From Flavobacteriales bacterium (GTDB lineage: Bacteria; Bacteroidota; Bacteroidia; Flavobacteriales_F; PHOS-HE28), in assembly GCA_046329115.1 (NCBI GenBank), contig JAXLVG010000006.1:67288-131287 (forward strand): 64,000 bases of DNA. Direction: 5' to 3'. Below the pieces are notes generated by a model that did not search any database, was not told the DNA's origin, and saw only the letters and a list, made by a program, of their open reading frames with translations. Both the position numbers and the translations under genes were made by a program. Of this stretch, positions 210 through 33,696 are shown piece by piece; position 1 is the first letter of the stretch; each line of letters begins with the position of its first letter.

Positions 210-773
210 ATGGTCCCCGAAACGCTCATCAACCGTTGCGCACGGCAGGAGCCGAAGGCCCAGTACGAGCTGTACCGGGCACTTCACGGGCTCATGATGT
301 CCATCTGCACGCGGTATGAGCGCAACCGACAGGACGCGGTGGCCCGGATGAACCAGGGATTCCTGAAGGTGCTGCAGAACATCGGCGACCGCCGTCCAGG
401 GGTGCCGTTCGATGCGTGGGTGAGCCGGATCATGATCAACACCGCCATCGACGACTTCCGCAAGCAGCGCAACCGCCGCGAACAGGAGGTGGTGATGGAG
501 CCGGTGGAGGACGGCAGGGCCGCCATGGTGAACGAGTACTTGCGCGACATGGAGGCCGAGGCCTTCGCCGCACTGCTGGACCGGGTGCCACCCATGTCCC
601 GGAACGTGTTCAACCTGCATGCGATCGACGGATACGCGCATGCGGAGATCGCCGAGCTGCTCCAGATAAGCGAAGGCACATCCAAATGGCACGTGGCCAA
701 TGCGCGCGCCATACTTCAAAAGGCCATCGCCCAGCAGGCGAAGGCCGCCACCATCAAGACAGAGGTGCGATGA
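210..773 (+). CDS. ECF-type RNA polymerase sigma-70 factor
   Basis: 187 aa; region 2 (FDAWVSRIMINTAIDDFRK) and region 4 (VFNLHAIDGYAHAEIAELLQISEGTSKWHVANAR). Confidence 0.9.
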   Translation: MVPETLINRCARQEPKAQYELYRALHGLMMSICTRYERNRQDAVARMNQGFLKVLQNIGDRRPGVPFDAWVSRIMINTAIDDFRKQRNRREQEVVMEPVEDGRAAMVNEYLRDMEAEAFAALLDRVPPMSRNVFNLHAIDGYAHAEIAELLQISEGTSKWHVANARAILQKAIAQQAKAATIKTEVR

Positions 774-2938: not shown

Positions 2939-5368
2939 TCAGCCGCGCAGCACGGCACCGGTGGCCTGTTCGATGGCTGTGCGGATGCGCCCCATGGCCT
3001 TGTCCACCTGTTCATCGGTAAGGGTCTTCTCGCTGTCCTGCAGCACGAAGCTTAGCGCATAGCTCTTCTTGCCCGGCGGCAGCTTGTCGCCCTCGTACAC
3101 ATCGAAGAGGTCCACCTGCCGGAGCAGCTTGCGCTCGGCACCGCGTGCCGCGCGTTCGATGCCAGCGTAGGTCACTTGTGCGTCCAGGAGCAGGCTCAGG
3201 TCCCGCCGCACGCTGGGGAAACGCGGCACTTCGCGGTGGGTGATGCGCGCACGGCCCACCGCGGTCGCCAACCGTTCCACCATGAGCTCGGCGAAGCAGG
3301 CGCTCTGCCGCACATCCATGGCACGCGCGATCGCCGGCGCCACCAGGCCCACGCGGGCCACCACGCCCTCCTTGATGGAGAACCGCACACAGCCGTTCAA
3401 CAGCGGATCATCGCTCACGTCCAGGTCCGCCGGCACGCCCAGCCGTTCCAGCAGGAGCTCCAGCTCGGCCTTGGCATCCTCCACCGTGGCGGGCACCTGG
3501 GCCTTGCGCCAGCGCTCGCGCGAGGCGGCACCGGTGATCAGGAACGCAATGCGCTCCTCCTCCACCGCAGCGCCGGCATGCACGGCGTACACGCGTCCGC
3601 GCTCGAAGAGACGCAGGTCCGGCTGCTGCCGGGCGATGTTGTGCGCAGCGCTCTGCAACAGGCCGAAGAGCATCGAGGGCCGCAGCACATCGAGTTCCGC
3701 GCTCAAGGGATTGCGGACATGCACCAGCTGACCCGTCGCCGCGGCCTGGCCCTCCACCATGCGCGCCGCGCTCACCAGCGAAGGGGTCATCACCTCCTTG
3801 AAGCCGCGCGCAGCGAGGTGCGCGGCGATGCGCCGATGCAGCGTTTCCAGCGGCTCCTCCGCGCGCGGGGCCGAGGGCACGCGCAACACCTCGGGCACCG
3901 GGACGCGGTCGAAGCCCACGATGCGCAGCACTTCCTCGATGAGGTCGGCTTCGCGAAGAACGTCCACCCGATAGGGCGGCACGGCCACCACGAAACCATC
4001 GCCGCTGCGGTCGTCGATGCGGCAGCCGATCTCCACGAGCGCGCGTTCCACCTCGGCACCGGAGAGCTCCGCCCCGATGAGCGTGCGCGTGCGCGCGAGG
4101 GAAAGTCCCACCTGCCGCCATTCCAACTGCGCATGCTGCACATCGGTGATGGCAGAGGCGATCCGCGCGCCGGCCACCTCGCGCAACAGCAATGCCGCGC
4201 GCTTCAAGGCGTACACGGTGATCTCCGGATCCACGCCCCGCTCGAAGCGGAAGGAAGCATCGGTCTGCAGGCCATGCCGCCGGGCCGTCCGCCGGATGCG
4301 CGCGGGGTTGAAGCAGGCGCTCTCCAGGAACACCGTGGTGGTGGCATCGGTGACCCCGCTGTGCAGGCCCCCGAAAACGCCCGCGATGCAGGCGGGCACA
4401 TCGCCGTCGGCGATCACCAGATCGGCGGCGGCCAGCTTCCGTTCGATCCCGTCCAGGGTCACGAAGGGTTCACCCGCGGAAGCATCGCGCACCACGATCC
4501 GGCGCCCGGACAGCTTGTCCGCATCGAACGCGTGCAGCGGCTGGCCCAGCTCGTACTGTACGAAGTTGGTGACGTCCACCACGTTGTTGATCGGCTTCAG
4601 CCCGATGCTCTTCAGGCGGTCCTGCAGCCACGCGGGCGAAGGGGCCACGGCAACGTGGGTGAGCGTGAGGCCCGCATAACGCGGCGCCCCTTCGGGCGAG
4701 CGCACCTCCACCTGCACGGCCGCGCCCTGCTCCTCCTGAACGAAGGCGGACACATCGGGCCAGCGCACCTGCAACTGGGCCCCGGTGCGCGTGTTCAGCG
4801 CCGCCGCCAGGTCGCGGGCCACACCGGCATGGCCCATGGCATCGGCACGGTTCGGCGTAAGGCCGATCTCCAGCGCGAAGTCGCTCACTAGGCCGAGGTG
4901 CTCGGCGGCCGGCGTGCCCACCATGGCATCCGCTGACAACACCATGATCCCAGCGTGAGAGATACCCAAGCCCAGTTCATCCTCGGCGCAGATCATGCCC
5001 TGGCTCTCCACCCCACGGATCTTCGAGCGCTTGATGGTGAGCGGCTCCCCGCCGACCGGATGCAGGGTGCTGCCCACGGTGGCCACGAATACTTTCTGTC
5101 CGGCGGCCACGTTGGGCGCCCCGCACACGATGGTGGCCGGGGTACCGGTGCCCAGGTCCACCTGGCAAACGCTCAGGCGGTCCGCATCCGGGTGCTTGGC
5201 ACGCTCCAGCACGGCACCTACGACCACGCCCTGCAGCATGCCCGGCACAGGTTCCACTGGCGTCACGCTCTCCACCTCCAGCCCGGTGCTGGTCAGGATG
5301 GCCGCGGCCGCGTGCGGGTCCAGGTCGGTATCGATCAGGGTGCGAAGCCAGTTCCAGGAGATGCGCAT
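2939..5368 (-). CDS. pheT: Phenylalanyl-tRNA synthetase beta subunit
   Basis: Start MRISWNWLR at 5368; HPDADRL, IVCGAPNV, ITPNR-type (LTPNRADAMGH), FERGVD, RRDLSLL motifs; about 809 aa. Confidence 0.97.
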   Translation of the reverse strand: MRISWNWLRTLIDTDLDPHAAAAILTSTGLEVESVTPVEPVPGMLQGVVVGAVLERAKHPDADRLSVCQVDLGTGTPATIVCGAPNVAAGQKVFVATVGSTLHPVGGEPLTIKRSKIRGVESQGMICAEDELGLGISHAGIMVLSADAMVGTPAAEHLGLVSDFALEIGLTPNRADAMGHAGVARDLAAALNTRTGAQLQVRWPDVSAFVQEEQGAAVQVEVRSPEGAPRYAGLTLTHVAVAPSPAWLQDRLKSIGLKPINNVVDVTNFVQYELGQPLHAFDADKLSGRRIVVRDASAGEPFVTLDGIERKLAAADLVIADGDVPACIAGVFGGLHSGVTDATTTVFLESACFNPARIRRTARRHGLQTDASFRFERGVDPEITVYALKRAALLLREVAGARIASAITDVQHAQLEWRQVGLSLARTRTLIGAELSGAEVERALVEIGCRIDDRSGDGFVVAVPPYRVDVLREADLIEEVLRIVGFDRVPVPEVLRVPSAPRAEEPLETLHRRIAAHLAARGFKEVMTPSLVSAARMVEGQAAATGQLVHVRNPLSAELDVLRPSMLFGLLQSAAHNIARQQPDLRLFERGRVYAVHAGAAVEEERIAFLITGAASRERWRKAQVPATVEDAKAELELLLERLGVPADLDVSDDPLLNGCVRFSIKEGVVARVGLVAPAIARAMDVRQSACFAELMVERLATAVGRARITHREVPRFPSVRRDLSLLLDAQVTYAGIERAARGAERKLLRQVDLFDVYEGDKLPPGKKSYALSFVLQDSEKTLTDEQVDKAMGRIRTAIEQATGAVLRG

Positions 5369-5482
5369 GGTGCCTTGGGGATCCGCCGACCCCGGGGTCC
5401 ATCCGGGGCTCGGCGTAGGTGATGGTCGTTGAAAGGTCGGCGAAGGTACCAAAGGCCGTTGTGGCGATAGTTTCGTGCGGCC

Positions 5483-6694
5483 GTGGAGTACATCATCCTT
5501 TCGATCCCGCTGTTCTTCCTGCTGATGGGGGTGGAGCTGGCGTGGAGCGCCTGGACCCACCGGAAGGTCTACCGCCTGAACGACTTCATCGCCAACCTGG
5601 GCTGCGGCATCGGCTCGCAGGTGGTGGGCGCCTTCACCAAGGCCGGGATCTTCTCGATCTACCTGTGGGCCTACGACCATCTACGCCTGCTCACCCTGCC
5701 CAGCACCGCCCTCACCTGGGTGGTGGCTTTCCTGCTCGTCGACCTGCTGTACTACTGGTTCCACCGCCTCAGCCACGAGGTGAACTTCCTGTGGGCAGCG
5801 CACATCGTGCACCACCAGAGCGAGGAGTACAACCTGAGCGTGGCGCTGCGCCAGAGCTGGTGGCAGGGCCTGTTCAGCTGGTGGTTCTACCTGCCCATGG
5901 CGGTGCTCGGCATCAACCCGGTGCTCATCGTCACCGTGGGCGCCTTCAACACCCTGTACCAGTTCTGGATCCACACCAAGGCCATCGGGCGCCTGGGTCC
6001 GCTGGAGACCCTGTTCAACACACCGAGCCACCACCGCGTGCACCACGGGAGCGACCCCAAGTACATCGATCGCAACCACGCCGGCACGCTCATCGTGTGG
6101 GACCGCCTCTTCGGCACCTACCAGCGCGAGGAAGAGGAGCCCGTGTACGGCATCACAACGCCGCTCACCAGCTGGGATCCGGTGCGGGCCAACTTCCACT
6201 ACTGGGGCGAGCTGATCGACCTGGCGAAGCAGTGCCCACGGTGGAGCGACAAGGTCCGCGTGTTCCTGAAGCCGCCCGGCTGGCGGCCCGCTGCGCTCGG
6301 CGGCTTCCAGGGGCCACAGCAGAAGGACCGTACCACCTACCGCAAGTTCGATACGGCGGTGCCGAAGGAACTGCACGGCTACGTGGCCGTGCAGTTCACC
6401 TTGCTGCTGGTGGTGACCACGCTGTTCCTGTTCAAGCAGCAACAACTTCCGCCCTGGATGCAATGGGCCGCGGCCCTGCTGATCATCTGGTGGGTGATGG
6501 ACATGGGCCTCCTGATGGAACGGCATCGCCGTGCCGTGATGCTGGAGAGCGGGCGCATCATGGCCTTCGCGCTGCTGGGCATCGGGCTCGTTCCCACCCT
6601 CTTGAACGCGTGGCCCCTGATCACCATCGTCCTCGGTGGCGTCAGCCTCCTGCACCTGGCGATGCTCGCCGCCAAGGACATCCTGCCATGGTGA
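5483..6694 (+). CDS. Alkylglycerol monooxygenase (AGMO/TMEM195)-like fatty acid hydroxylase family membrane di-iron enzyme
   Basis: His boxes YYWFHRLSHEVNFLWAAHIVHHQSEEYNLSVALRQ and FNTPSHHRVHHG..IDRNHAGTLIVWDRLFGT, plus the AGMO-type C-terminal extension (YGITTP...KPPGW) and extra TM helices; 403 aa. Confidence 0.8.
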   Translation: MEYIILSIPLFFLLMGVELAWSAWTHRKVYRLNDFIANLGCGIGSQVVGAFTKAGIFSIYLWAYDHLRLLTLPSTALTWVVAFLLVDLLYYWFHRLSHEVNFLWAAHIVHHQSEEYNLSVALRQSWWQGLFSWWFYLPMAVLGINPVLIVTVGAFNTLYQFWIHTKAIGRLGPLETLFNTPSHHRVHHGSDPKYIDRNHAGTLIVWDRLFGTYQREEEEPVYGITTPLTSWDPVRANFHYWGELIDLAKQCPRWSDKVRVFLKPPGWRPAALGGFQGPQQKDRTTYRKFDTAVPKELHGYVAVQFTLLLVVTTLFLFKQQQLPPWMQWAAALLIIWWVMDMGLLMERHRRAVMLESGRIMAFALLGIGLVPTLLNAWPLITIVLGGVSLLHLAMLAAKDILPW

Positions 6695-7230
6695 AGCTGC
6701 CCGTTCCGTCCCTTGAGGGCCTGCGCACGGAGCGGCTCACCTTCCGCCGCCTTGCACCGGCCGATGTGGACTGGTGGATGGGGTACATCAACGACGCCAC
6801 CGCGATCCGCTTCATGCCCTTCACGTTGGGCAGCCGTGCGGACTGTGCGCTGATGATCCAACGCTCGCTGGACCGCTACGCGCAGGATGGCAGCGGGCTG
6901 CACGCGCTGATCACGGCCGATGGCACGGCGGTGGGCCAGTGCGGGTTGCTCACACAGGAGGTGGACGGCGCCGCTGAACTGGAAGTGGGCTACCACCTGC
7001 ACCCCGCGCATTGGGGCCGTGGCTACGCCAGCGAAGCCGCCATCGCCTGCAGGGACTTCGCCTTCGCGCGGTGCCTCGCCCCCTCGGTGATCTCGTTGAT
7101 AGACCCGGGCAACGCCCTGAGCCAGGCCGTCGCCCGCCGCAACGGCATGTCCTGCGGCAAGCGGACGGTGCACCGGGGCATCCCCGCGGATGTCTGGCGC
7201 GTGTGGGCGGACGCGCGCTCCGGCACCTGA
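6688..7230 (+). CDS. GNAT family N-acetyltransferase (RimJ/RimL type)
   Basis: ATG at 6688 overlaps the upstream gene end; LRTERLTFRR, VGQCGL, EVGYHLHPAHWGRGYASEAA, IDPGNALSQAVARRNGM. Confidence 0.85.
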   Translation: MVKLPVPSLEGLRTERLTFRRLAPADVDWWMGYINDATAIRFMPFTLGSRADCALMIQRSLDRYAQDGSGLHALITADGTAVGQCGLLTQEVDGAAELEVGYHLHPAHWGRGYASEAAIACRDFAFARCLAPSVISLIDPGNALSQAVARRNGMSCGKRTVHRGIPADVWRVWADARSGT

Positions 7231-7271
7231 GCGAAGACGGGCACGGCTAACTTCGCCCGCATCACCGCCGC

Positions 7272-7996
7272 ATGGAGATCACGAAGCACCCCTGGTTGAA
7301 CATCGGGGCGTACGCCCTGGCCACGTTGGGCTGCGCGGTGGCCGTGGGCACCGGCCGGCACGGGCTGGAGTATGTGTGCAAGCCGGCGATGATGCTGATC
7401 CTCTCCTCCTGGTTCTTCTTCAACAGCCGGCGCTACGGCGACCGGTTCACGCTGCTGATCCAGGCCGGCCTCTTCTTCTCGCTCATCGGGGACATCGCAC
7501 TGATGTTCGCCGACGTGGACCACTTCAATTTCATCATCGGCCTGGGCGCCTTCCTCATCGCGCACCTGTGCTACGCCATGGCCTTCATCAGCAACATCAC
7601 GGCCACCGAGGGCGATGGCTGGGTGCTTGGTGCGGGGGTCTCCGCGCTGATCGTGCTCTATGCGGTCTTCTTCGCGCTGGACCTGGTGCCTGTGCTGGAC
7701 GAGACCATGGTGCTCCCCGTGGTGGCCTACGTCTGCGTGATCGCCTTCATGGGCGTCACTGCGGCCTTCCGCCACACGCGCACGTTCCCGCGCAGCTTCT
7801 GGCTGGTGCTGGTGGGCGCCGCGTTGTTCATGGTGTCGGACAGCCTGCTGGCCACCAACCGGTTCGTGCGCCCGCTGTCGTGGGCGCCTGCGGTGATCAT
7901 CATCACCTATGCCGCCGCGCAGCTGCTCATCGCCTTCGGGGCGCTGGTGCATGTGCTGGACCCGGACACCATCCTCCGGCGCCGGGCCCTGGAAGC

Positions 7997-8000
<4 letters not shown>
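7272..8000 (+). CDS. YhhN/TMEM86 family lysoplasmalogenase
   Basis: Multi-TM; KPAMM, GLFFSLIGDIALM, GLGAFLIAHLCY, GAALFMVSDSLLA, TYAAAQLLI motifs. Confidence 0.85.
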
Positions 8001-10123
<2,123 letters not shown>

Positions 10124-10154: not shown

Positions 10155-10580
10155 TCACCACAACCCCGGCACCAACCGGGCCACGCCCTTCATGCGCTCC
10201 GGATAGTCCGGATGGCGCATCGTGAGCGCACGCTCCTCGTACCGGATCTTCAGCACGAGCACCACCAGGCAGACCGGCAACGCGGCCCAGCGCCAGGTGC
10301 TCGGATCCCCGAAGGCGACCGCCGCACCGCACAAGAGCACGGCCGCATACATCGGGTGGCGAACGAAGCGGTAGATGCCGCGCTGCGAAAGTTCATTGCC
10401 TTCGCGCGGATCGGGCAGGATGGTGAAGTTCCTGCTTCCTAGAGCGGCCGTGGCCAGCACGAAGACCAGCATACCGGTGCCGAAGAGCGCCCAGGCCCAC
10501 CACGGCAGATCCCAGCCACCAGCGAAAAGCAAGATCGCGATGCAGGTGAACTGTGCGAGGACCAGTGCGAGCGAACGCAT
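10155..10580 (-). CDS. Isoprenylcysteine carboxyl methyltransferase / PEMT family membrane protein
   Basis: Small multi-TM protein with GIYRFVRHPMY and KIRYEERAL...YPE motifs. Confidence 0.8.
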   Translation of the reverse strand: MRSLALVLAQFTCIAILLFAGGWDLPWWAWALFGTGMLVFVLATAALGSRNFTILPDPREGNELSQRGIYRFVRHPMYAAVLLCGAAVAFGDPSTWRWAALPVCLVVLVLKIRYEERALTMRHPDYPERMKGVARLVPGLW

Positions 10581-12988: not shown

Positions 12989-13017
12989 GATGGGGGGACG
13001 AAGATACCGGTGGAGGT

Positions 13018-13536
13018 TCAGCCCCGGCCCGATGTGGGCTTGCGGCGTTTGCGGCCGGGCAGCTGGCCGGCGTCGAAGGAGAGCGGCAGCAGGCTGTCCA
13101 CGCTGTACATCTCCACCACGGGGCCCTTGGTGATGCCCATCAGCACTCGGATGGGGCTCTCCTGCCGGCGTTCCTGCTCCAGCAGCGCCTGGCGGCAGAT
13201 GCCACAGGGGCTCACCGGCCGCTGGCCCCGCACCTGGGGCACCACGATGGCGATGCTCTCCACCACGGCCTTGGGGTCGGCCGCCATGGCCGCGTGCAGG
13301 GCGGTGCGCTCGGCACAGCAGCCGGCTGGGAAGCTGGCGTTCTCCTGGTTGTTGCCGCTCACCACCGGACCATCCTCGATGCGGAGGGCCGCCCCCACCT
13401 TGAAGCGCGAGTAGGGCGCGTAGGCCCCGCGGGCCGCCTTGGCCGCCGCCTCCAGCAATTGCCGGTCAGCCTTGTCCAAGGCCGACCACGAGCTGTGTTG
13501 CAGGTAGTGCGTGGCGATCTTTCGGTTCACGGACAT
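13018..13536 (-). CDS. cdd: Cytidine deaminase
   Basis: AYAPYSRFKVGAA, GNNQENAS, CCAERTAL, SPCGICRQ zinc motifs. Confidence 0.92.
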   Translation of the reverse strand: MSVNRKIATHYLQHSSWSALDKADRQLLEAAAKAARGAYAPYSRFKVGAALRIEDGPVVSGNNQENASFPAGCCAERTALHAAMAADPKAVVESIAIVVPQVRGQRPVSPCGICRQALLEQERRQESPIRVLMGITKGPVVEMYSVDSLLPLSFDAGQLPGRKRRKPTSGRG

Positions 13537-13623
13537 GGGCTTCTGCGGAAAGGGCCCCGAAGGTACTCGGCCACAACGTCCGGCGCACGGCGGTCCCCTT
13601 CCCCTAGATTTGGCCTCCTTCGC

Positions 13624-14376
13624 ATGAACGTTCCCGAAGCGCTGCTGTCACGGTTCGAGCCCATCTCCCTGGCCGAGATGGACGCGGTGGCGCTCCAATC
13701 ACGCACGGACACCAAGTACGTCTTCAGCACGGCGCTCCTTCCCGGCCTGCTGGAAGGGATGATGCGCGACTACCGCCTGCTGTACGTGAACGGCGCGCCC
13801 GGTGCCCGGTACCGTTCCCTGTACCTGGACACCCCCGACCGCCGGCACTTCCTGGACCACCACAACGGCCGGACCTTCCGCAGCAAGGTGCGTTTCCGCG
13901 AGTACCTCGGCTCGGAGCTCGCCTTCCTGGAGGTGAAGCGCAAGACGGGCCGGGGCGACACGGACAAGGTGCGCATCCGTGTGGACCGGATACCCGAGCG
14001 GCCCGACGCGGCGCAGCTGGACTTCGTACGCAAGGCCTCGGGGCGCGACGAGCGTCTGGAGCCTGTGATGTGGAACACGTTCACGCGCTACACGTTCGTG
14101 CACCGCACACGGCAGGAGCGGCTCACCATGGACCTGGACCTCGCCTTCACCACGGGCGACCGGCGCTTCAGCCTGGACGGCATCTGCGTGGCCGAGCTGA
14201 AGGAGGGCCGCGCCGACCGGGGTTCGCCGTTCAGTGCCATGATGCGCGCCCTTGGCGAACGGCCGAAGGGCATGAGCAAGTACTGCATCGGGCTGATCGA
14301 ACTGGGACTGGCCCCGCGCGCCAACAACTTCAAACCCGTGCTGCTGCGCCTGCGAAAGCTGCGCCAGGCGGCCTGA
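13624..14376 (+). CDS. VTC (polyphosphate polymerase)-domain protein, CYTH/TTM superfamily
   Basis: ATG 13624; RTDTKY, YRSLYLDT, RSKVRFREY, FLEVKRK, ERLTMD, VAELK, MSKYCIG. Confidence 0.85.
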   Translation: MNVPEALLSRFEPISLAEMDAVALQSRTDTKYVFSTALLPGLLEGMMRDYRLLYVNGAPGARYRSLYLDTPDRRHFLDHHNGRTFRSKVRFREYLGSELAFLEVKRKTGRGDTDKVRIRVDRIPERPDAAQLDFVRKASGRDERLEPVMWNTFTRYTFVHRTRQERLTMDLDLAFTTGDRRFSLDGICVAELKEGRADRGSPFSAMMRALGERPKGMSKYCIGLIELGLAPRANNFKPVLLRLRKLRQAA

Positions 14377-14395
14377 AAAACCCCCACCCGCGTTG

Positions 14396-15046
14396 ATGAT
14401 CAAGGTGTTCGGTATGCGGCTCTTCCACGAGGACCTGTGGGAGCTGCTGTTCAAGTTCGGCCTCGATGCGCTCGTGCTCTTCGTGCTCATCCGGGTCATC
14501 TATTACCCGATCCACCGCAAGAAGGAGAACCTCTTCACCTACTTCGTCTTCAACGTCCTCATCTTCTTCCTCTGCGTGCTGATGAACAACGTGAAGCTGA
14601 GCATGGGCTTCGGCTTCGGGCTCTTCGCCGTGTTCAGCATCATCCGCTACCGCACGGAGCAGCTCTCCGTGAAGGACATGACCTACCTGTTCGCAGTGAT
14701 CACCCTCGCCGTGATCAATGCGTTGGTGAGCAAGAAGGTGAGCCTGGTGGAGCTGCTCTTTACGAACGCGACCATCCTGGCCCTGGTGTACATCATGGAA
14801 CACCTCTGGCTCACGCGCCACGAGGCCATGCGCCAGCTCATCTACGAGCGCATCGACCTGATCAAGCCGCAGAACCGGGACAAGCTCTTTGCCGACCTGC
14901 AGGAGCGCCTGGGCATCAAACCCAGCCGGGTGGAGATCGGGCGCATCGACCTGCTGCGCGACACGGTACAGTTGCGCGTGTTCTTCTTCGAGGACGAGCA
15001 GACGCTTGGGACCTTCACGGAGCCTCCGCGCGACAACGACGATTGA
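14396..15046 (+). CDS. DUF4956 family membrane protein
   Basis: Multi-TM; GFGFGLFAVFSIIRYRT...KDMTYLF motif and C-terminal DLQERLG...VEIGRIDLLRD soluble domain; directly follows the VTC gene. Confidence 0.85.
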   Translation: MIKVFGMRLFHEDLWELLFKFGLDALVLFVLIRVIYYPIHRKKENLFTYFVFNVLIFFLCVLMNNVKLSMGFGFGLFAVFSIIRYRTEQLSVKDMTYLFAVITLAVINALVSKKVSLVELLFTNATILALVYIMEHLWLTRHEAMRQLIYERIDLIKPQNRDKLFADLQERLGIKPSRVEIGRIDLLRDTVQLRVFFFEDEQTLGTFTEPPRDNDD

Positions 15047-15110: not shown

Positions 15111-15590
15111 TCATCCGCGCTGGACAAGGGCCACCGCATAGGCGCTCACGCCCTCCTCCCGGCCCACATAGCCCAGGGTCTCGTTCGTAGTGGCCTTGAT
15201 GCTCACCGCATCACGCTCCACCCCGAGCAGCGGCGCGATGGCCTCCACCATGGCGGGAATGTGCGGCTTGATCCGCGGCCGTTCCAGCAGCAGAGTGGAG
15301 TCCACGTTCACCACGCGCCAGCCCCGCTCCGCGAGCAGCTCCCGCACCTGCCGCAGCAGCACCTTGCTGTCAGCACCCTTCCAGCGCGCGTCGGTATCCG
15401 GGAAGTGATGACCGATGTCGCCGAGGGCAACGGCCCCGAGCAGGGCATCGCTGATGGCGTGGAGCAGTACATCGGCATCGCTGTGACCGAGCGCACCCAC
15501 AGAGTGCTCCAAGCGCACGCCGCCGAGCCAGAGCTCACGGCCTTCCACCAAGCGGTGCGTGTCGAAACCGAAGCCGACGCGGAAGCTCAT
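15111..15590 (-). CDS. ispF: 2-C-methyl-D-erythritol 2,4-cyclodiphosphate synthase
   Basis: RVGFGFDTHRL, GHSDADVLLHAISDALLGA, GDIGHHFPD, SIKATTNE. Confidence 0.97.
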   Translation of the reverse strand: MSFRVGFGFDTHRLVEGRELWLGGVRLEHSVGALGHSDADVLLHAISDALLGAVALGDIGHHFPDTDARWKGADSKVLLRQVRELLAERGWRVVNVDSTLLLERPRIKPHIPAMVEAIAPLLGVERDAVSIKATTNETLGYVGREEGVSAYAVALVQRG

Positions 15591-16840
15591 TCCACGTCGC
15601 CCTCCTTCTTCCGGGGCTTGCCGTCGAAGTTGAACCCGAGGGTGAACCGCAGCGTGTTGGCCAGCGGGCTGCGCTGCGTGTTGGCGATCAGGTAGCTGAA
15701 GTCGAGCGAGAAGATGCTGTACCGCACGCCAAGCCCCATGGTGAAGTACTTGCGGTTGCCCTTGGTGTAGTGCTCGTAGAAGTAGCCCGTTCGGAAGGCG
15801 AACTGCTTGGCGTACCAGTATTCCAGTCCGCCGGCGTAGTTGATCTCCCGGAGCTCCTCCTTCAACTTGCTTCCGGGGATCAGCTGGTTGTTCTGATCGA
15901 GGTAGCCCGGCGCATCGGAGAACGAACCCAGGATGCCGGCCGCCACCCCGCGGGTGGGGTCCTCACCGAACAGGATGGTGTCGCCCGTCACGCTGTAGAT
16001 CGGCGGTGTGGGCACCAGCAGCTTGTTCACGTCCACGTTGAAGGAGATGCTGTTGTACTTGTCGATGTCCACGGTGAGGCAGGGCCCGATCCGCATGTTG
16101 ATCGGCAGGAAGTCGCGCCGTGCGGCATCGCTGTAGGACATCTTGGCGCCGACGTTCGAGATGTTGAGGCCGAAGGCCAGGATCGCATCCTTGCCGCCCA
16201 CGGTCATGCGGTCCTTGCGGTAGAAGAAGGACACGTCCGCCGCCACGCTCTGGCCGGCCTTCGTGTTGGCGCCGCTCACGTTGAGCCCGCCGGTGAGGTT
16301 GCTGTTGATGTAGCGCAGGGCGATGCCGCCGCTGAACACATCGCTGAACTTCTGCGAGAAGGCCAGGTCAACGGCGAACTCGGCGGGTTTGAAGTCCCGG
16401 ATCACCTGGCCGTTCACATCCGTGAACGTGATGCTGCCCAGGTTGAAGTAACGCAGCGAACCGCCCATGGCGGCGCGCTTGTTCTTCATCTTCTTGTAGT
16501 AGGCCAGGTAGGCCAGGCTCATGTCCGGCACCAGGTTGCGGAGCCAGGGCGAAACGGACAGGCGGAACTGGCTCTCGTCCTCCGCGAACACCAGTTTGCT
16601 GGGGTTCCAATGGATGGCGTTCGCATCCGCCGGCAGGGCCACGCCCGCATCACCCATGCCGCCGGAGCGCGAATCCGGACCGATGATCAGGAACGGAACG
16701 GCCGTGGTGATGGTGTTCAGCACCTGATCGCAGGCCTGTCCGGTGAGCTCGTTCAGGCAGTCCTGTTCCACCTGGGCGAGAAGGGCCGGCGTGCTGGCGG
16801 CCAGGAGCATCGCACAGGCTAAGGGACGGATCAAGGCCAT
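15587..16840 (-). CDS. porV: Type IX secretion system outer membrane shuttle PorV
   Basis: ITTAVPFLIIGPDSRSGGMGDAGVA, WNPSKL, GGSLRYFNLG, KGNRKYFTMG, SPLANTLRFTL; directly downstream of porU. Confidence 0.95.
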   Translation of the reverse strand: MALIRPLACAMLLAASTPALLAQVEQDCLNELTGQACDQVLNTITTAVPFLIIGPDSRSGGMGDAGVALPADANAIHWNPSKLVFAEDESQFRLSVSPWLRNLVPDMSLAYLAYYKKMKNKRAAMGGSLRYFNLGSITFTDVNGQVIRDFKPAEFAVDLAFSQKFSDVFSGGIALRYINSNLTGGLNVSGANTKAGQSVAADVSFFYRKDRMTVGGKDAILAFGLNISNVGAKMSYSDAARRDFLPINMRIGPCLTVDIDKYNSISFNVDVNKLLVPTPPIYSVTGDTILFGEDPTRGVAAGILGSFSDAPGYLDQNNQLIPGSKLKEELREINYAGGLEYWYAKQFAFRTGYFYEHYTKGNRKYFTMGLGVRYSIFSLDFSYLIANTQRSPLANTLRFTLGFNFDGKPRKKEGDVE

Positions 16841-16906
16841 GAGGGGATGACGGGTTCGCTATTGAAAGGGTGGCGAATATACGCGGCCTGCAAGGGCGTT
16901 ATTGTG

Positions 16907-19900
16907 CTAGCGCAGGATGACCAGCTTCTCGATCTTATCCGCGGACTCCCCGGCATCGTTGGAGATGGACAGGCGGTACACATACACACCGCGACCGAGC
17001 TTATCCCCCTGATCATCAAGGCCATCCCAGGCCAGCGGCTCCGATCGGAAGCCCTCGCATTGCAGGCGACGTGCCAGGGTCTTCACCAAGCGCCCGGCCA
17101 CCGTGAACACCTGCAGCCGTACATCCAGTTCGCCGCAAGGGCGGTTGTGCTCAAAGTAGAACTCCGTACGCGTGGTGAACGGGTTGGGGTAGTTGAGCAC
17201 ATGCTCCAGGGCAAGTTCCGCGCTGGGCGCCACGACGAAGTCGATGCTCCGGACACTGCTGTTGTTGTGCACGTCCCAAGCCTTCAGCTCCAAGGTGTGT
17301 GCGCCTTCGGAAAGGTCGTTCAGGCGGTAGCGCACCTGGCCGCTGCGGTAGGTGTTCAGGTCCGCCTCGTACACATCGTTCAGCACGATGGCGGCTTCGG
17401 TGTTGCCATCGATCACCGCCGTAAGGTCGTGGCCGATGCTGCTGCCCAGCGTGTTGATCCCGTTGTCGTCGAAGAGCTTCGCCAGCAGCAAGGGGTCCTC
17501 GTTGGTGGTGCCGCCCGGAACGAAACGCTCATCGTTCATGAAGAGGTCGATCCGCGGGCCTGCCTCGTCCACCGGGGCATTGGGGTCGGTGGAGCCCACG
17601 TTCCGGTCGTTGTCATAGCCGCAGGCGTTCGTGGAAGCACTTTCCGCATAAACGCTGATGCGCCCCGGGCCCACCTGGTAGTTGATGTCCTTGGGAACCA
17701 CGAAGGTGAACTCGAACTGGCCGTTCGTGACCGTGGCCTTTCCACGGTGGATGATGTTCCGCCGCAGCTGGTAGTTGAAGGGCTGGCCACCATCGTTCGC
17801 CAGCGTGCTCACGTTGCTCTCCTTGTCGAACACGGTGGGCACCACCACACCATTGAAGTCCGTGAGCACCTGGCCCTGTTCATCCACCACCTCCCCCTTG
17901 ATCCGCACCGTGGCCAAAGCCTTCATCGTATCCACCGGGTTGCCCAGCGTATCGGTCACTGCGGTGATGCGCGCGTCCTTGCGGGCCATGGCCAGCCGGA
18001 TGGAGGGGTCGCCAAGGAGGCAGAAGTTGCGATAGTTGGTGCCCTGGGTGCTCACGTCCGCCTTCGTGCGGCGATAGATGTCGCCGAAACGCTCGGCACG
18101 GCCCTGCTCATCCACCGTCTCGAACACATGCTGGAAGAAGCGACGGGCAAGGGCCTGGTTGGCGCCACTGTACGCGATGCGGGTGGTGGTCATCAGGCCG
18201 ATACCACCGCCGTTGGGGTTCAGCAGGACGAACTCGCCGGCCGATGTGCGGGTGGGGTCGTCCCACCGCGTGAACTCGCATGTGGCGGTCATGAACAACG
18301 GCAGCCGCTCCAGGTTGCTCCAGCCCAGGATGGTCTGGATGTCAAGGAAGCGCTCGTGCGCCCAGCCCACCTCGCCGCCGTGGCCGATGTAGTTCACCAG
18401 CAGCAGCCCCTTCTGCACGCGATCGCGCAAGGCCACCTCCGCTTCGGGATAGCGCTGGCCGCCCGGTGTGCTCTCCTGCACGTAGGCGTCCATGTACACC
18501 TTGGCCAGGTTGAGGCAGGGCTGCTCCTGTTCCACGGTGTTGGCCAGCTCATCGCTGTACAGCATGTGGATGGTGCCTTCGAAGCCGTCACCGCTCTGGT
18601 CGTCGCTGGCGAACAGCACCCAGTTGCGCCAATCGTTCGCGCCGCCGTCCGAACCGGTCGCACAGGAACTGCCCTGCGCGCTGGTCAGCAGCAGTTGGTC
18701 GTACTTCAGGATCTTGTCCACCATTTCCCGGGCCTGCGTCACGTTGCTCACGGGTATGCGTCCCACGCCCACGTCGACGATATCGGAGAGCGCCTCGCCC
18801 TCCGCATCGTCCAGCAGGCAGTAGTAGTCGTCGCTGGTGTAGCAGGAGGAGGGCACCCACGAGTTCACCGACTGGAAACTGGGTATCCAGTTCTGGTTGC
18901 CTTCGGCCAGGTTGTAGTTGTTGAACGACCCATCGCCGAAGAGGAGGAGGTAGCGCGGGAAGAGGGTGCTGTCCGTACCGGCCCGGTCGTAAAGGAGCTT
19001 CATGTACCGCTTGATGGCGGTGGCATCACGCTGGCCGGAGGAGAACTCGTTGTAGATCTGCTGGGGGGTCACCATCACCACGGACAAGCCTTCGTCCGCA
19101 CGGCGTTCGGCCAGGCGTGCCGCCTCGCTCCAGAACTGCGGGGGGCAGACGATCACCATCTCCGTGGGGGTCGGGGTGGCGTGCAGGTCCTGCGGGGCTA
19201 CCGGTCCAACTGCCGTTGGCTGCAGGTATCCACTGTTGCGGAAGGCGATGAACTGGCGCAGTTCCTCCGTGGCCACACGGAAACGCTTTTGGGACCCGCT
19301 GGTGGTGGCGTCCACACGGCCCACATTGGTGGGGTCGGTCACCTCCCAGATGCGGGCCACGGCACCGGCCTGCTCCAGTACGAACTCCCCGATCCGTCCG
19401 GCGCCCACCGTGGTGGGGTCGCGGAACACCAACTGGTCGCCGGTCATGGTCAGGTCGCGCCGGGCGTTCAGTTCCAGGTAGTTCAGCCAGCCCAACGAAC
19501 TGATCGGGTCGGACTTGTTGAAGGTGACCGTGATCGGCAGGGAACTGCCCGAGGCGTTGAAGCAGAAGGTGCGCCGGGACGTATCGGCGTAGGTGCCCGC
19601 ATAGCTCCCGCTCACACCGGAATCGTTGAAGGTGAACCCCTGCCCCGCCACGTTCAACTGCCACTGACTGCTGTTGCCCACCCCGATGGTGCGGCTCAGC
19701 ACATCCACCACCAGGCAGGCCTGTTCGCCGGAGCGCAGGAAAGGGGTCTGGAAGCTGTAGTTGTAGGTGGTGGTCAGGTCATAGGTCTCACCGTACCACG
19801 TGCGGCCGCTCTTCAAGAGGTTCACCAGGTCCCGGTCGATGAACTGACGGTCCGTAAAGGCGGTGACCTCATCGGTGAAGGGATCGGCACTGAGCTCCAC

Positions 19901-20821
19901 GGCAGCGATCCGCTTGGCCGGCTCCACATCCAAGCCGATGAAATAGGTGGCCGAATCGGTGTAGGTGTTCTTGGTATGCACGAAGCGCTGCAGCCCGGGG
20001 CTCCATGCCCAGTCGTCCGGACCGCTGGCATAGAACAGGATGTGGTCGTTGGCATCGAACTGTCCGTCCCCGCCGTCCACCACCTCAATGGCATTGCACA
20101 GCAGGTCGGTCGGCGGCAGTTCGGCGTTCTCGGTCGGGAGCACACCGGCGTGGTTGCCGTACACGTTGATGCGGTCGGAGGCAAGGCCGGCGGTGGGTAT
20201 CCCCAACTGCTGCAGGAACGCCTGGTCAAGTTTGTACACCCCCTCCCTGGCCACCTGAAAGCGGTACCACGATCCGATGGCCAGCTTGGAGTTATCGGGA
20301 TAGTCGCCGCTCTTGGCCCCACCCGCACCCCCGCGGCGTTGCCCGGTGACCCGGAGCGTATAGTCCACCAACCGTTGCACCTGCCCGGTGGCCGCATCCT
20401 TTCTGTATGGGTAGATGTCCACCAACGCCATCGGCCGCTTCCGCGCGTAGCCGACGGACGTGCGCACCTCGGGCTCCGCTCCGGGAACACCAAGACCGGG
20501 CAGGCTTGCAAGCTCCGCGGCCGGAATGTCCGCAAAGCGGGTGTTCACGAGTTCCACCGTGCAGGCATCCGAGCCCATCGGAAGCGCCACCTGCTCGTGG
20601 TAGTAAGGCAGGTCCTGGCGCTCGGTGTCCAAAAAGAGTTTGTCGGCCTTGGAAGCCATCTGCGGGTCGCGCGGGACGGAAGGCTTGCTCCGGACCGTCC
20701 CTAGGGCGCCCCCAACTGCCGATCGGGATGGATCGTTCAGCTGCTGGGCGTTCGCGAGGAAACCCGCTACCAGAGCGGAGATCAGCAGGACCGGGCGCTT
20801 GACGTGCATGGACGCTTTCAA
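16907..20821 (-). CDS. porU: Type IX secretion system sortase PorU (C25 peptidase)
   Basis: 1304 aa; YLLLFGDGSF, VGVGRIPV, NYIGHGGE (His), TATCEF (Cys), LLGDP, CTD VLNYPNPF...KLVILR. Confidence 0.95.
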   Translation of the reverse strand: MKASMHVKRPVLLISALVAGFLANAQQLNDPSRSAVGGALGTVRSKPSVPRDPQMASKADKLFLDTERQDLPYYHEQVALPMGSDACTVELVNTRFADIPAAELASLPGLGVPGAEPEVRTSVGYARKRPMALVDIYPYRKDAATGQVQRLVDYTLRVTGQRRGGAGGAKSGDYPDNSKLAIGSWYRFQVAREGVYKLDQAFLQQLGIPTAGLASDRINVYGNHAGVLPTENAELPPTDLLCNAIEVVDGGDGQFDANDHILFYASGPDDWAWSPGLQRFVHTKNTYTDSATYFIGLDVEPAKRIAAVELSADPFTDEVTAFTDRQFIDRDLVNLLKSGRTWYGETYDLTTTYNYSFQTPFLRSGEQACLVVDVLSRTIGVGNSSQWQLNVAGQGFTFNDSGVSGSYAGTYADTSRRTFCFNASGSSLPITVTFNKSDPISSLGWLNYLELNARRDLTMTGDQLVFRDPTTVGAGRIGEFVLEQAGAVARIWEVTDPTNVGRVDATTSGSQKRFRVATEELRQFIAFRNSGYLQPTAVGPVAPQDLHATPTPTEMVIVCPPQFWSEAARLAERRADEGLSVVMVTPQQIYNEFSSGQRDATAIKRYMKLLYDRAGTDSTLFPRYLLLFGDGSFNNYNLAEGNQNWIPSFQSVNSWVPSSCYTSDDYYCLLDDAEGEALSDIVDVGVGRIPVSNVTQAREMVDKILKYDQLLLTSAQGSSCATGSDGGANDWRNWVLFASDDQSGDGFEGTIHMLYSDELANTVEQEQPCLNLAKVYMDAYVQESTPGGQRYPEAEVALRDRVQKGLLLVNYIGHGGEVGWAHERFLDIQTILGWSNLERLPLFMTATCEFTRWDDPTRTSAGEFVLLNPNGGGIGLMTTTRIAYSGANQALARRFFQHVFETVDEQGRAERFGDIYRRTKADVSTQGTNYRNFCLLGDPSIRLAMARKDARITAVTDTLGNPVDTMKALATVRIKGEVVDEQGQVLTDFNGVVVPTVFDKESNVSTLANDGGQPFNYQLRRNIIHRGKATVTNGQFEFTFVVPKDINYQVGPGRISVYAESASTNACGYDNDRNVGSTDPNAPVDEAGPRIDLFMNDERFVPGGTTNEDPLLLAKLFDDNGINTLGSSIGHDLTAVIDGNTEAAIVLNDVYEADLNTYRSGQVRYRLNDLSEGAHTLELKAWDVHNNSSVRSIDFVVAPSAELALEHVLNYPNPFTTRTEFYFEHNRPCGELDVRLQVFTVAGRLVKTLARRLQCEGFRSEPLAWDGLDDQGDKLGRGVYVYRLSISNDAGESADKIEKLVILR

Positions 20822-20843
20822 CAGGTTATCAACAATGAAGGAA

Positions 20844-20860
20844 CGAAAGTATTACCTTCG
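20844..20860. promoter_or_regulatory. Back-to-back Bacteroidota -7 promoter boxes for porU (minus) and porP-family/gldJ (plus)
   Basis: CGAAAGTA (20844-51; TACTTTCG on minus) T TACCTTCG (20853-60). Confidence 0.55.
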
Positions 20861-20989
20861 ACCCTCGTGTTTCAGAACACACGACCAACGGCTCGGGTTC
20901 TCGCTTATTGCGGGAGCCAAGGAACGAACCCGAAGCCGGGGCGATCCGTATACTTGGCGCTCGCCGAGGGCGTTGAACGAACCGAGAGC

Positions 20990-21967
20990 ATGAAGAGAAG
21001 GACCTTCAAGCGTGCGGCCGCGTGGTGCGTACTGGGGTTGCTGGCGCCATTCATGGCCGCCGCGCAGGACCCGCAGTTCACGCAGTTCTATGCCAATCCG
21101 CTTTACCTGAACCCGGCCTTCGCCGGCACGGCCCGCTGCCCCCGGGTGGTCCTCAATTACCGCAACCAATGGCCCGCCCTTTCGGGCACCTTTGTCACCA
21201 CCAGCGCCAGCTACGACCAGGACGTGCGCGGCATCATGGGGGGACTGGGCCTGCTGGTCACCAATGACCAGGCCGGCAAGGGCACGCTGACCACCTCCAC
21301 GGTGAGCGGCATCTATTCGTATACCCAGGCCATCAACCGCAAGTTCAGCGTGAAGGTGGGTTTCCAAGCCACCTACTTCCAGAAGCGGCTTGATTGGAAC
21401 AAGCTGACCTTCGGCGACATGATCGACCCTCAGCGTGGGTTCATCTATCAGACCAACGATGTGCCCCGGGGGGGTGGGGCCAGCGGGGCCGACTTCTCGG
21501 CCGGCGTGCTGGGCTACACGGACATCTTCTTCTTCGGCTTCGCAGCGCATCACCTCACGGAGCCCAATGAATCGCTGATCGTGGGCACCAGCAAGATGCC
21601 GATGAAGTTGACCGGACATGCCGGTGCGGCCATTCCCTTGGGCATGAAAGGCAAGTACGGTGTGGCCAAGACGAAGCTCTCTCCCAACGTCCTGTACATG
21701 CAGCAGGCGGAGTTCCGCCAGTTGAACTTGGGTCTGTACGTGGACCACGGGCCCATCATCGCAGGTGTGTGGTACCGCTCGCGCGATGCCTTCATCGCCC
21801 TGATCGGCTTCCATGCGGACAAGTGGAAGTTCGGCTACAGCTATGATGTGACCACCAGCCGACTGACCACGGCCACGGCGGGCTCGCACGAGATAAGCCT
21901 CACCATGCAGTTCAACTGCAAAAAGAAGCGCCGCCGGGTACGCACCGTGCCCTGCCCCACGTTCTGA
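20990..21967 (+). CDS. PorP/SprF family T9SS membrane protein
   Basis: ATG 20990; AQDPQFTQFYANPLYLNPAFAG, YRNQWP, FGYSYD, GSHEISL. Confidence 0.92.
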   Translation: MKRRTFKRAAAWCVLGLLAPFMAAAQDPQFTQFYANPLYLNPAFAGTARCPRVVLNYRNQWPALSGTFVTTSASYDQDVRGIMGGLGLLVTNDQAGKGTLTTSTVSGIYSYTQAINRKFSVKVGFQATYFQKRLDWNKLTFGDMIDPQRGFIYQTNDVPRGGGASGADFSAGVLGYTDIFFFGFAAHHLTEPNESLIVGTSKMPMKLTGHAGAAIPLGMKGKYGVAKTKLSPNVLYMQQAEFRQLNLGLYVDHGPIIAGVWYRSRDAFIALIGFHADKWKFGYSYDVTTSRLTTATAGSHEISLTMQFNCKKKRRRVRTVPCPTF

Positions 21968-22019
21968 ACAAGTGACCCGACCGGCCGCGCTGCAAGGCGG
22001 CCGCCCAACAAGGAAGACC

Positions 22020-27463: not shown

Positions 27464-27534
27464 CAGCGTCGGACGGAAAAGAGACCGGATCCCGGGCGCC
27501 CCCCCACCCTGCCCCGGGTACCTTTGATCCCATC

Positions 27535-32214: not shown

Positions 32215-32229
32215 TCGCACAATGTAGAT

Positions 32230-32304
32230 GGAGGCATAGCTCAGCTGGTTCAGAGCATCTGCCTTACAAGCAGAGGGTCGCTGGTTCGAATCCGGCTGCC
32301 TCCA
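32230..32304 (+). tRNA. tRNA-Val (TAC)
   Basis: Acceptor GGAGGCA/TGCCTCC, anticodon arm TCTGC-CTTACAA-GCAGA, T-loop TTCGAAT; CCA not encoded. Confidence 0.97.
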
Positions 32305-32325
32305 CCCCGCCGACATTGACATTCT

Positions 32326-32400: not shown

Positions 32401-32411
32401 CTCCTTAGAGC

Positions 32412-33635: not shown

Positions 33636-33696
33636 GCCTTTCCAAGGCCGAATACGGCATCTTGATAACCAAGGACTTACGGCGTTGAGAAGTTTT

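Follow-up and report, generated by a model that had tools for sequence, protein, structure and literature searches.

A conserved bacterial gene pair of AGMO-like and YhhN membrane proteins points to a candidate ether-lipid-cleaving module

Introduction

Animals cut ether-linked lipids with two enzymes, AGMO and the lysoplasmalogenase of the YhhN family. To our knowledge, AGMO, a labile protein, has not yet been obtained in pure form, and a sequence search of the PDB found no solved AGMO structure. In the human enzyme, Q162, D233, N235, W243, D244 and Tyr236 are essential, and Glu137, located beside the second histidine, has been tied to the affinity for tetrahydrobiopterin (PMC3304488). The only bacterial protein of the AGMO clade with activity data is PRUB680, which is AGMO-like and cyclises prodigiosin (PMC6667630, PMC7911779). 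Within the YhhN family, rat TMEM86B was shown to hydrolyse the vinyl ether in lysoplasmalogens (PMC3137066), lysoplasmalogenase activity was measured for the Legionella and Mycobacterium tuberculosis proteins (PMC9052158, PMC11994398), and the proposed catalytic positions of TMEM86A are K43, G81, D82, H104, G182, S189, D190 and Y213 (PMC11994398). Why plasmalogen-free aerobes keep YhhN has been raised as a puzzle (PMC9052158). Here we describe a locus in which an AGMO-like gene and a yhhN gene occur together, a coupling for which we found no description in any paper. The locus lies in a 64-kb stretch of DNA from a Flavobacteriales bacterium, which is termed the window in the following.

Results

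Three genes on the + strand are bracketed by pheT and recG, and the relevant features of the window are:

5468..5475, + strand: Bacteroidota −7-box-like element TAGTTTCG, found by pattern scan, 8 nt upstream of the GTG of the AGMO-like gene
5483..6694, + strand: AGMO-like integral-membrane di-iron oxygenase, GTG start, TGA stop, 403 aa
6688..7230, + strand: GNAT N-acetyltransferase (Acetyltransf_3), ATG start, TGA stop, 180 aa
7248..7255, + strand: −7-box-like element TAACTTCG, found by pattern scan, 17 nt upstream of the yhhN ATG
7272..8000, + strand: yhhN, YhhN/TMEM86-family membrane protein, putative lysoplasmalogenase (vinyl-ether hydrolase), ATG to TAA, 242 aa

A sequence-only reading of this DNA had described three co-oriented, adjacent genes, and we could confirm their coordinates, starts, stops and common strand. 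The start of the GNAT gene overlaps the end of the AGMO-like gene by 7 nt, and the GNAT gene is thus translationally coupled to it, while the yhhN stop shares 4 nt with the stop of the convergent recG.

The product of the first gene combines an FA_hydroxylase core (Pfam, 104 bits) with a probable AGMO-type C-terminal four-helix region. In BLAST comparisons it matched human AGMO with 37% identity over 389 aa (245 bits, E 1e-81), whereas the human paralogues CH25H, MSMO1, SC5D and FA2H reached 34.7, 33.1, 28.5 and 22.3 bits, with alignments that span about 135 residues (145 aa for SC5D). With the same four human paralogues included, a neighbour-joining tree placed all bacterial AGMO-like proteins with human AGMO and apart from SC5D, MSMO1, CH25H and FA2H. 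Judged by its sequence, the first gene is of the AGMO type and no sterol desaturase: the sequence-only reading had set these two families against each other, and the grouping with human AGMO was borne out by the scores (245 vs 28.5 bits) as well as by the tree. An SC5D/ERG3 identity was rejected on the low score over only 145 aa and on the approximately 190 residues that follow the third His box. The best NCBIfam match was the ornithine-lipid hydroxylase OlsE (NF052566), and this identity was also rejected, as the 56.4 bits are far under the equivalog cut-off of 475. The bacterial AGMO-like branch comprises 1,898 representatives at E ≤ 1e-30 (one per 50%-identity cluster), and its proteins show full-length identities of 36–45% to human AGMO.

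All nine essential histidines are in place, namely the eight of the FA_hydroxylase motif and the equivalent of human His201: H94, H98, H107, H110 and H111 align with human H132, 136, 145, 148 and 149, and H164, H184, H187 and H188 with human H201, 221, 224 and 225. Human Q162, D233, N235, W243 and D244 are likewise present as Q124, D196, N198, W206 and D207, and across 160 bacterial homologues the nine histidines, Q162, D233, N235 and D244 (human numbering) are invariant. The motif HRLSHEVN comprises residues 94–101, and its Glu99 aligns with human Glu137, whose equivalent is retained in 137 of the 160 homologues, the window protein among them; the segment HEVNFLWAAH agrees with the animal consensus H-E-[ILV]-N-I-[FILM]-W-A-[AG]-H at 9 of 10 positions, with Phe for Ile. 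The alignment thus upheld the full His-box pattern, including HRLSHEVN with its Glu, that had been read from the sequence. The essential Tyr236 is replaced by His199, and His is found at this position in 131 of the 160 homologues, with Tyr retained in Burkholderiales fusions (see below). The proposed C-terminal extension is also present and probably of the AGMO type, as the BLAST alignment reaches window residue 380 (human 423). The Pfam domain AGMP_C (PF24858) scored 24.2 bits (E 3.5e-5), under its gathering score of 28.3, and was matched by 21 of 43 diverse family members (E ≤ 0.001). In the AlphaFold2 model (pLDDT 75.4), the predicted helices fit a layout of 5+4 transmembrane helices with four C-terminal helices. 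A Foldseek search of the PDB with this model gave nothing significant (best E 0.87), and a PDB sequence search gave no match at E ≤ 1.

The third gene had been assigned to the YhhN/TMEM86 family, which Pfam supports with 148.1 bits for PF07947 (cut-off 25.6). All eight catalytic positions of TMEM86 are occupied in the window protein (K37, G73, D74, H98, G182, S189, D190, Y213), and YhhN thus looks intact from its sequence. The TMEM86A and TMEM86B sequences used for residue numbering (with TMEM86A as reference) and for BLAST comparison have no exact database match, but at each of the eight numbered positions the TMEM86A reference shows the residue given in the literature. A PDB sequence search with YhhN gave no match at E ≤ 1.

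The AGMO-like and yhhN genes are neighbours far more often than expected by chance. In 41 of 43 close relatives, and in 33 of 67 other Bacteroidota loci that have different flanks, the AGMO-like gene is immediately followed by yhhN, and the reading frames usually overlap. Among Burkholderiales, each of the 80 genome loci examined, as well as two additional contigs, encodes both in a single open reading frame. The number of fusions is a lower bound, corresponding to at least 80 Comamonadaceae/Burkholderiales genomes. AGMO-like always comes first and YhhN second in these fusions, and the catalytic residues of both halves are all kept. The conserved linkage to be expected from the sequence-only reading was therefore found across Bacteroidota orders with different flanks, and as fusions in Burkholderiales. 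There is no YhhN in the vicinity of the AGMO-like genes of Pseudomonas, Acidobacteriota, Leptospira and Myxococcota.

That reading had grouped the three genes in one candidate locus, of which the pairing of AGMO-like and YhhN stood, whereas the membership of GNAT did not: no more than about 19 of the 43 close relatives have the GNAT gene, and all distant loci lack it. The conserved unit consists of two genes, and GNAT is a lineage-specific insert or accessory gene outside of it. Its product is an Acetyltransf_3 protein (PF13302, 89.7 bits vs a gathering score of 25.4), with PA3944 as the closest solved structure (E 4e-16). GNAT is probably a later arrival in the lineage of the window, upon which yhhN would have acquired its own −7-type promoter. 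Such a promoter had been noted as a caveat, and the caveat gained support from the positional conservation of the element and from the placement of similar elements before most genes of the window. L009, L011 and L020 have TAAATTCG at the position of TAACTTCG, and the TAnnTTCG box is kept there in relatives; TAnnTT[TC]G matched 20 times in the window, mostly 6–80 nt upstream of gene starts on the same strand. Judged by these patterns, TAGTTTCG is a probable promoter of the unit and TAACTTCG a probable internal promoter of yhhN. A sigma-70 promoter scan yielded no promoter, and a scan for intrinsic terminators yielded one terminator-like site inside yhhN, which is at chance level.

The pair is flanked by core or housekeeping genes in both Flavobacteriales and Comamonadaceae. 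The Comamonadaceae loci have ruvAB, phoH and a histidine phosphatase gene as neighbours, while the Pseudomonas AGMO-like genes are accompanied by ppk, hemB, a DJ-1 family gene and dedA; among recurring partners in these neighbourhoods besides YhhN, there were no catabolic or pterin genes. Neither uptake/transporter, regulator or beta-oxidation genes accompany the pair, nor does a pigment or other biosynthetic cluster adjoin it. Within the 64-kb window, we found no gene for pterin synthesis or recycling, no aldehyde dehydrogenase (ALDH) and no GDPD, and tblastn with neighbouring ALDH, GDPD and HADH proteins from other loci gave no match in the window. In single loci, GDPD immediately follows yhhN (L057, L058, L061, L063), ALDH adjoins the pair (L050, L075, L140, L141), and lipase/phospholipase-type alpha/beta hydrolases are adjacent (L050, L075, L140) or fused (P0234, P0237). 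These neighbours agree with the products expected from ether glycerolipids, but this is anecdotal, as GDPD, ALDH and hydrolases were each seen in no more than one or two lineages, and the presence of GDPD and ALDH, in one or two independent lineages each, could be due to chance.

Discussion

Our preferred reading, to which we give a probability of roughly 0.55, is that the locus codes for two inner-membrane enzymes that work as a module and take the ether-linked chain off the sn-1 position of ether glycerolipids whose sn-2 hydroxyl is free. With O2 and an external reductant, the AGMO-like di-iron enzyme would introduce a hydroxyl group at C1 of a 1-O-alkyl chain, and the resulting hemiacetal would collapse to a fatty aldehyde and glycerol or a glycerophospho-headgroup. 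For YhhN, the expected reaction is hydrolysis of the 1-O-alk-1'-enyl (vinyl ether) bond in lysoplasmalogens, with products of the same kinds, and jointly the two enzymes would dispose of, or salvage, ether lysolipids of both classes that may reach the cell membrane from the biomass of other organisms. The hosts of the pair are aerobes, and we know of no plasmalogen synthesis in them; the substrates must therefore be exogenous, or something else. A reduced pterin as reductant is suggested by the conserved Glu99, the equivalent of Glu137, which is the sole hint in this direction. Because of the housekeeping flanks and the absence of transporter and regulator genes, nutrient scavenging fits no better than membrane clearance or detoxification, and we do not specially favour the idea that lipids are scavenged as food. 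The replacement of Tyr236 by His, the sub-threshold AGMP_C score and the lack of pterin, ALDH and GDPD genes in the window count against an ether cleavage module of the AGMO type, and so do the AGMO-like genes of other bacteria that have no YhhN close by.

It is unlikely, though worth weighing, that the target which the pair modifies or turns over is a membrane lipid of the bacterium itself without an ether bond, or another hydrophobic metabolite. The AGMO-like protein would then be a generic oxygenase of lipid C-H bonds, and YhhN would have some other bacterial function. Homology does not fix the substrate, as PRUB680, the one AGMO-like enzyme characterised from bacteria, has prodigiosin as its substrate (PMC6667630), and it has been asked by others whether YhhN of plasmalogen-free organisms targets other molecules (PMC9052158). 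The core genomic context in Flavobacteriales and Comamonadaceae is what would be expected for a role in the cell's own lipid metabolism, and the exchange of Tyr236 and the OlsE match, the latter in spite of its 56 vs 475 bits, point in the same direction. However, the similarity to human AGMO extends over the full length, including the probable C-terminal domain and Glu137, and the YhhN catalytic residues are all retained; moreover, the occasional GDPD, ALDH and lipase neighbours match ether glycerolipid products, and the pair is not part of a pigment or biosynthetic cluster.

In another, rather improbable scenario, the two enzymes act successively on one 1-O-alkyl lipid and not in parallel on two lipid classes, so that bacterial YhhN would be the second component of a system for cleaving O-alkyl ethers. 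The FA_hydroxylase superfamily includes hydroxylases as well as desaturases, with SC5D as an example of the latter, and the hemiacetal formed by vinyl-ether hydrolysis is the same as that produced by AGMO. The di-iron enzyme could either desaturate the alkyl ether, giving a vinyl ether for YhhN to hydrolyse, or hydroxylate it to a hemiacetal whose breakdown YhhN accelerates. The one-polypeptide fusions with AGMO-like in first position, together with the overlapping reading frames in Bacteroidota, form a pattern characteristic of obligate partners or of enzymes in successive steps, and the scenario would account for YhhN in plasmalogen-free aerobes (PMC9052158). Yet Legionella and M. tuberculosis YhhN cleave lysoplasmalogen without an AGMO partner (PMC9052158), and many AGMO-like genes, as in Pseudomonas and Acidobacteriota, have no yhhN nearby, and each enzyme can therefore stand alone; in addition, the hemiacetal collapse in animal AGMO requires no helper (PMC7911779). 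We consequently regard an obligate two-step machine for saturated O-alkyl ethers, in which the YhhN half resolves the vinyl ether or hemiacetal made by the di-iron half, as doubtful. An accidental neighbourhood due to pheT–recG synteny, for which the conserved flanks in the lineage of the window (shared ancestry could suffice among close relatives) and the apparent own promoter of yhhN might speak, is very improbable and was rejected, as it is contradicted by the Burkholderiales fusions and by an adjacency that persists across orders and phyla with unrelated flanks.

The gene pair thus points, by its sequence features, to a bacterial ether-lipid-cleaving module. The AGMO-like gene is coupled to YhhN in an operon in Bacteroidota and in a natural fusion in Comamonadaceae; this coupling gives independent evidence from genomes that both ether-cleaving activities belong together, and it offers a testable answer to the YhhN puzzle (PMC9052158). 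The bacterial AGMO-like branch provides tractable material for biochemistry and structure, and the natural fusion is carried by culturable Variovorax and Polaromonas strains. The question of the cofactor is sharpened to which reductant serves an AGMO-like enzyme in bacteria. In ecological terms, the pair would mark bacteria that are able to degrade ether lipids in habitats such as sludge and freshwater. A two-step machine, if true, would reveal a plasmalogen-independent role for bacterial YhhN and the first bacterial, possibly non-biopterin, AGMO system.

Comparison with known systems

With animal AGMO (TMEM195, EC 1.14.16.5), the window protein shares the 37% identity over 389 aa, the eight-His motif with His201, the positions Q162, D233, N235, W243 and D244, Glu137 and, probably, the C-terminal four-helix region in a predicted 5+4 helix layout (PMC3304488, PMC7911779). 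It differs in being bacterial, in its His in place of Tyr236, in an N-terminus that is shorter by about 40 residues, and in an AGMP_C score under the cut-off; the bacterial genes are coupled to YhhN in operons or fusions, which is unreported for animals, and genes for tetrahydrobiopterin are absent from the window. SC5D/ERG3, MSMO1, CH25H, FA2H and OlsE share the His-box di-iron core, but not the AGMO C-terminal domain or the Glu by the second His (PMC3304488). PRUB680 belongs, by its published description, to the same bacterial AGMO-like FA_hydroxylase branch (PMC6667630, PMC7911779), yet it serves a pigment pathway, whereas the gene of the window has no prodiginine genes nearby and YhhN as its partner. 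The window YhhN resembles TMEM86A/TMEM86B, Legionella LpYhhN and M. tuberculosis Rv1401 in its YhhN domain (148 bits), its length and its eight catalytic positions (PMC11994398, PMC9052158). Unlike LpYhhN and Rv1401, it has a putative activity, is paired with an AGMO-like oxygenase to which it is fused in other bacteria, and belongs to a free-living Flavobacteriales host of the sludge/freshwater type and not to an intracellular pathogen.

Layout of the locus

Three co-oriented genes had been read from the sequence alone, an AGMO-like gene (alkylglycerol monooxygenase, which cleaves O-alkyl ethers), a GNAT gene and yhhN (the YhhN/TMEM86 lysoplasmalogenase cleaves vinyl ethers), and this observation is correct at its coordinates, because gene calls and Pfam matches agree.

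2939-5368, minus strand: pheT, flank of the three-gene set
5468-5475, plus strand: TAGTTTCG motif before gene 1
5483 (GTG) to 6694 (TGA), plus strand: gene 1, AGMO-like, 403 aa
6688 (ATG) to 7230 (TGA), plus strand: GNAT gene, 180 aa, its first 7 nt lying within gene 1
7248-7255, plus strand: TAACTTCG motif before yhhN, conserved in relatives as TAAATTCG
7272 (ATG) to 8000 (TAA), plus strand: yhhN, 242 aa, stop overlapping the convergent recG stop
7997-10123, minus strand: recG, flank of the three-gene set

In Pfam, gene 1 matches FA_hydroxylase (104 bits) and, short of the gathering score of 28.3, AGMP_C, the C-terminal domain of AGMO (24.2 bits, E 3.5e-5), the GNAT protein matches Acetyltransf_3 (89.7 bits; closest solved relative the broad-specificity PA3944), and the third protein matches the YhhN family (148 bits). 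The window has a G+C content of 65%, and its nearest relatives are MAGs of Flavobacteriales recovered from lakes and activated sludge.

The motif TAnnTT[TC]G occurs 20 times in the window, mostly 6-80 nt 5' of same-strand gene starts (other examples: 12999-13006 (-), 13558-13565 (-), 27519-27526, 39700-39707 and 57832-57839 (-)). The canonical Bacteroidota form TAnnTTTG was found 8 times against 3.6 expected, and TAnnTTCG 12 times against 6.2 expected with equally good placement relative to genes; this suggests that C is accepted at position 7 of the -7 box in the high-GC window lineage. It is thus plausible for the window lineage that yhhN is transcribed from a promoter of its own, as the sequence-only reading had cautioned, since a conserved motif of a class that precedes gene starts lies before this gene.

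Other features of the window

210-773, plus strand: ECF sigma factor, then a long ORF to 2377 (+) whose middle is of low complexity and rich in Pro/Ala/Thr/Ser and whose C-terminal region is beta-barrel-like; its product is possibly an anti-sigma or outer-membrane protein
10155-10580, minus strand: small lipid-related PEMT/ICMT-family membrane methyltransferase, 141 aa, just past recG and about 2 kb from yhhN
13294-15046, plus strand: genes for a VTC-domain and then a DUF4956 protein, together possibly polyphosphate-related; judging by the TAGATTTG box at 13605-13612, the true start of the VTC-domain gene probably lies well inside the listed ORF
15587-23792: type IX secretion cluster with PorV (15587-16840, -), a PorU-like C25 peptidase of 1304 aa (16907-20821, -), PorP/SprF (20804-21967, +) and an FGE-sulfatase-domain protein (21972-23792, +)
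32229-32401, plus strand: two tandem tRNA-Val (anticodons TAC, CAC), 125 nt 3' of a TATATTCG box
33696-34280: ECF sigma factor, near phytoene/squalene synthase (35773-36615, +) and DNA photolyase (37097-38494, +); 35773-38494 is a possible region for carotenoids or light response
58991-63973: second very large C25-domain protein, 1660 aa, at the window end

Gene 1 and YhhN as putative enzymes

Gene 1 and human AGMO (NP_001004320.1 / Q6ZNB7) share 37% identity across 389 aligned residues (E 1e-81), C-terminal region included; against the human paralogues SC5D, CH25H, MSMO1 and FA2H, gene 1 scores 28.5, 34.7, 33.1 and 22.3 bits in alignments of at most about 135 residues. These five human sequences were exact database matches. 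A neighbour-joining tree agrees, as the window protein and 31 diverse bacterial homologues group with human AGMO, apart from the four paralogues, and the assignment as AGMO-type rather than sterol desaturase is upheld. OlsE, an ornithine-lipid hydroxylase, was the sole NCBIfam match and was rejected with a score far under the cut-off.

We checked the residues with a mutagenesis effect in human AGMO (PMC3304488, PMC7911779). Nine histidines, Q162, D233, N235 and D244 (human numbering) are invariant in 160 bacterial homologues, and the window protein carries W243 as W206 and Glu137, whose loss in the human enzyme raises the Km for tetrahydrobiopterin 18-fold (PMC3304488, PMC7911779), as E99. Its motif HEVNFLWAAH compares with the animal consensus H-E-[ILV]-N-I-[FILM]-W-A-[AG]-H, and among the checked residues only Tyr236 departs, being replaced by His in the window protein (His199) and in 131 of the 160 homologues. 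The helices of an AlphaFold model (pLDDT 75.4) are predicted to fit a 5+4 transmembrane layout; PDB searches returned no structural neighbour for this model and no relative for the sequence. The bacterial family comprises 1,898 representatives (one per 50%-identity cluster, E <= 1e-30) in Bacteroidota, Pseudomonas, Acidobacteriota, Leptospira, Myxococcota and others, with 36-45% identity to human AGMO, and AGMP_C was found in 21 of 43 diverse members.

The window YhhN has all eight TMEM86A/B positions proposed and tested as catalytic (K37, G73, D74, H98, G182, S189, D190 and Y213; PMC11994398), numbered on a TMEM86A sequence that is not an exact database match but has each published residue under its published number.

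Linkage and fusion

For the linkage analysis, 160 loci were collected by means of the window protein and a human-led alignment and then de-duplicated, those with at least 900 nt downstream being kept, and YhhN was counted as adjacent when directly downstream on the same strand. The neighbourhood is conserved across Bacteroidota, with adjacent YhhN in 41 of 43 close Flavobacteriales relatives (pheT/recG context) and in 33 of 67 other Bacteroidota with unrelated flanks (Chitinophagales, Saprospiraceae, Cytophagales, Sphingobacteriales), where the two frames mostly overlap; two further loci of the latter group have YhhN within 3.4 kb. Outside Bacteroidota, one locus in 33 has the pair. About 19 of the 43 close relatives have the GNAT gene, which invariably sits immediately next to the AGMO-like gene, and the distant loci all lack it; it is an insert specific to the window lineage.

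Two close relatives (loci L017 and L019; AGMO-like 6001-7215, GNAT 7212-7727) keep pheT, AGMO-like gene and GNAT, with a rearrangement breakpoint directly after GNAT and no YhhN or recG within about 5 kb downstream. In a Chitinophagales MAG (L064), the AGMO-like gene (6001-7278) is followed by a tandem shorter FA_hydroxylase paralogue (7308-8288, 326 aa), and by YhhN 3.4 kb further along on the same strand.

An exhaustive protein search identified a protein of 595 aa with AGMO-like and YhhN domains (P0322), encoded on two independent contigs (L161 4001-5788, L162 1705-3492), and a genome scan with it gave at least 80 fusion loci (L163-L242; e.g. L166 3001-4767, L231 3001-4758). Nearly all hosts are labelled Comamonadaceae or other Burkholderiales, and the genera are Variovorax, Polaromonas, Ramlibacter and Hydrogenophaga, each with cultured carriers, Curvibacter and Hylemonella. 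The fusions are about 560-595 aa long; all 80 scanned loci give one in-frame alignment across both domains without internal stop, and no catalytic residue of either half is lost in any of the 82 fusions. This Rosetta-stone fusion, together with the cross-order adjacency, is the strongest evidence that the AGMO-like and YhhN proteins would function jointly. Further AGMO-like domain fusion proteins were seen (P0234, P0237, P0311, P0287), the partners being Abhydrolase_2 (phospholipase/carboxylesterase), an Abhydrolase_1/TAP-like hydrolase, an SRPBCC (Polyketide_cyc2) lipid-binding domain, and Beta-lactamase2 with Golvesin_C.

Function and biological role

We favor, with a probability of roughly 0.55, a two-enzyme module for ether-lysolipid cleavage that would handle alkyl and alkenyl ethers in parallel. 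A non-ether substrate of the pair is a tentative and rather doubtful option, for which the Tyr236His exchange, the core-gene context and the precedent of PRUB680, the AGMO-like prodigiosin cyclase of Pseudoalteromonas rubra, can be cited. A sequential mechanism, in which YhhN would act after the AGMO-like enzyme, is suggested by the fusion and appears unlikely to us. Accidental synteny is very improbable.

As to the ether-lysolipid module, four Chitinophagales-type loci have GDPD directly after yhhN, four loci carry an aldehyde dehydrogenase beside the pair, and lipase/phospholipase-type hydrolases are adjacent in three loci (L050, L075, L140) and fused in P0234 and P0237. These neighbours would fit glycerophosphodiester and fatty aldehyde as expected products and the requirement for a free sn-2 hydroxyl, a fit that is anecdotal because none of them goes back to more than one or two lineages. 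Housekeeping genes neighbour the AGMO-like gene in the window lineage, Pseudomonas and Comamonadaceae (ruvAB and phoH at the fusions), and the 64-kb window contains no pterin, ALDH3-type or GDPD gene; the context therefore favours constitutive membrane maintenance or detoxification at least as much as nutrient scavenging. Of the sequence-only reading, the AGMO-like/YhhN pair stands, and the scavenging role proposed there is not specially favoured by the housekeeping context.

In the literature collection searched, no paper tied AGMO to YhhN in bacteria and none was on a bacterial alkylglycerol-cleaving AGMO. Reviews place AGMO in animals and, of bacterial relatives, cite only PRUB680 (PMC3617469, PMC7911779), and some automated annotations already name bacterial AGMO-like proteins "alkylglycerol monooxygenase". 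The kinds of enzymes are themselves known, and the new element is their conserved coupling, fusion included.
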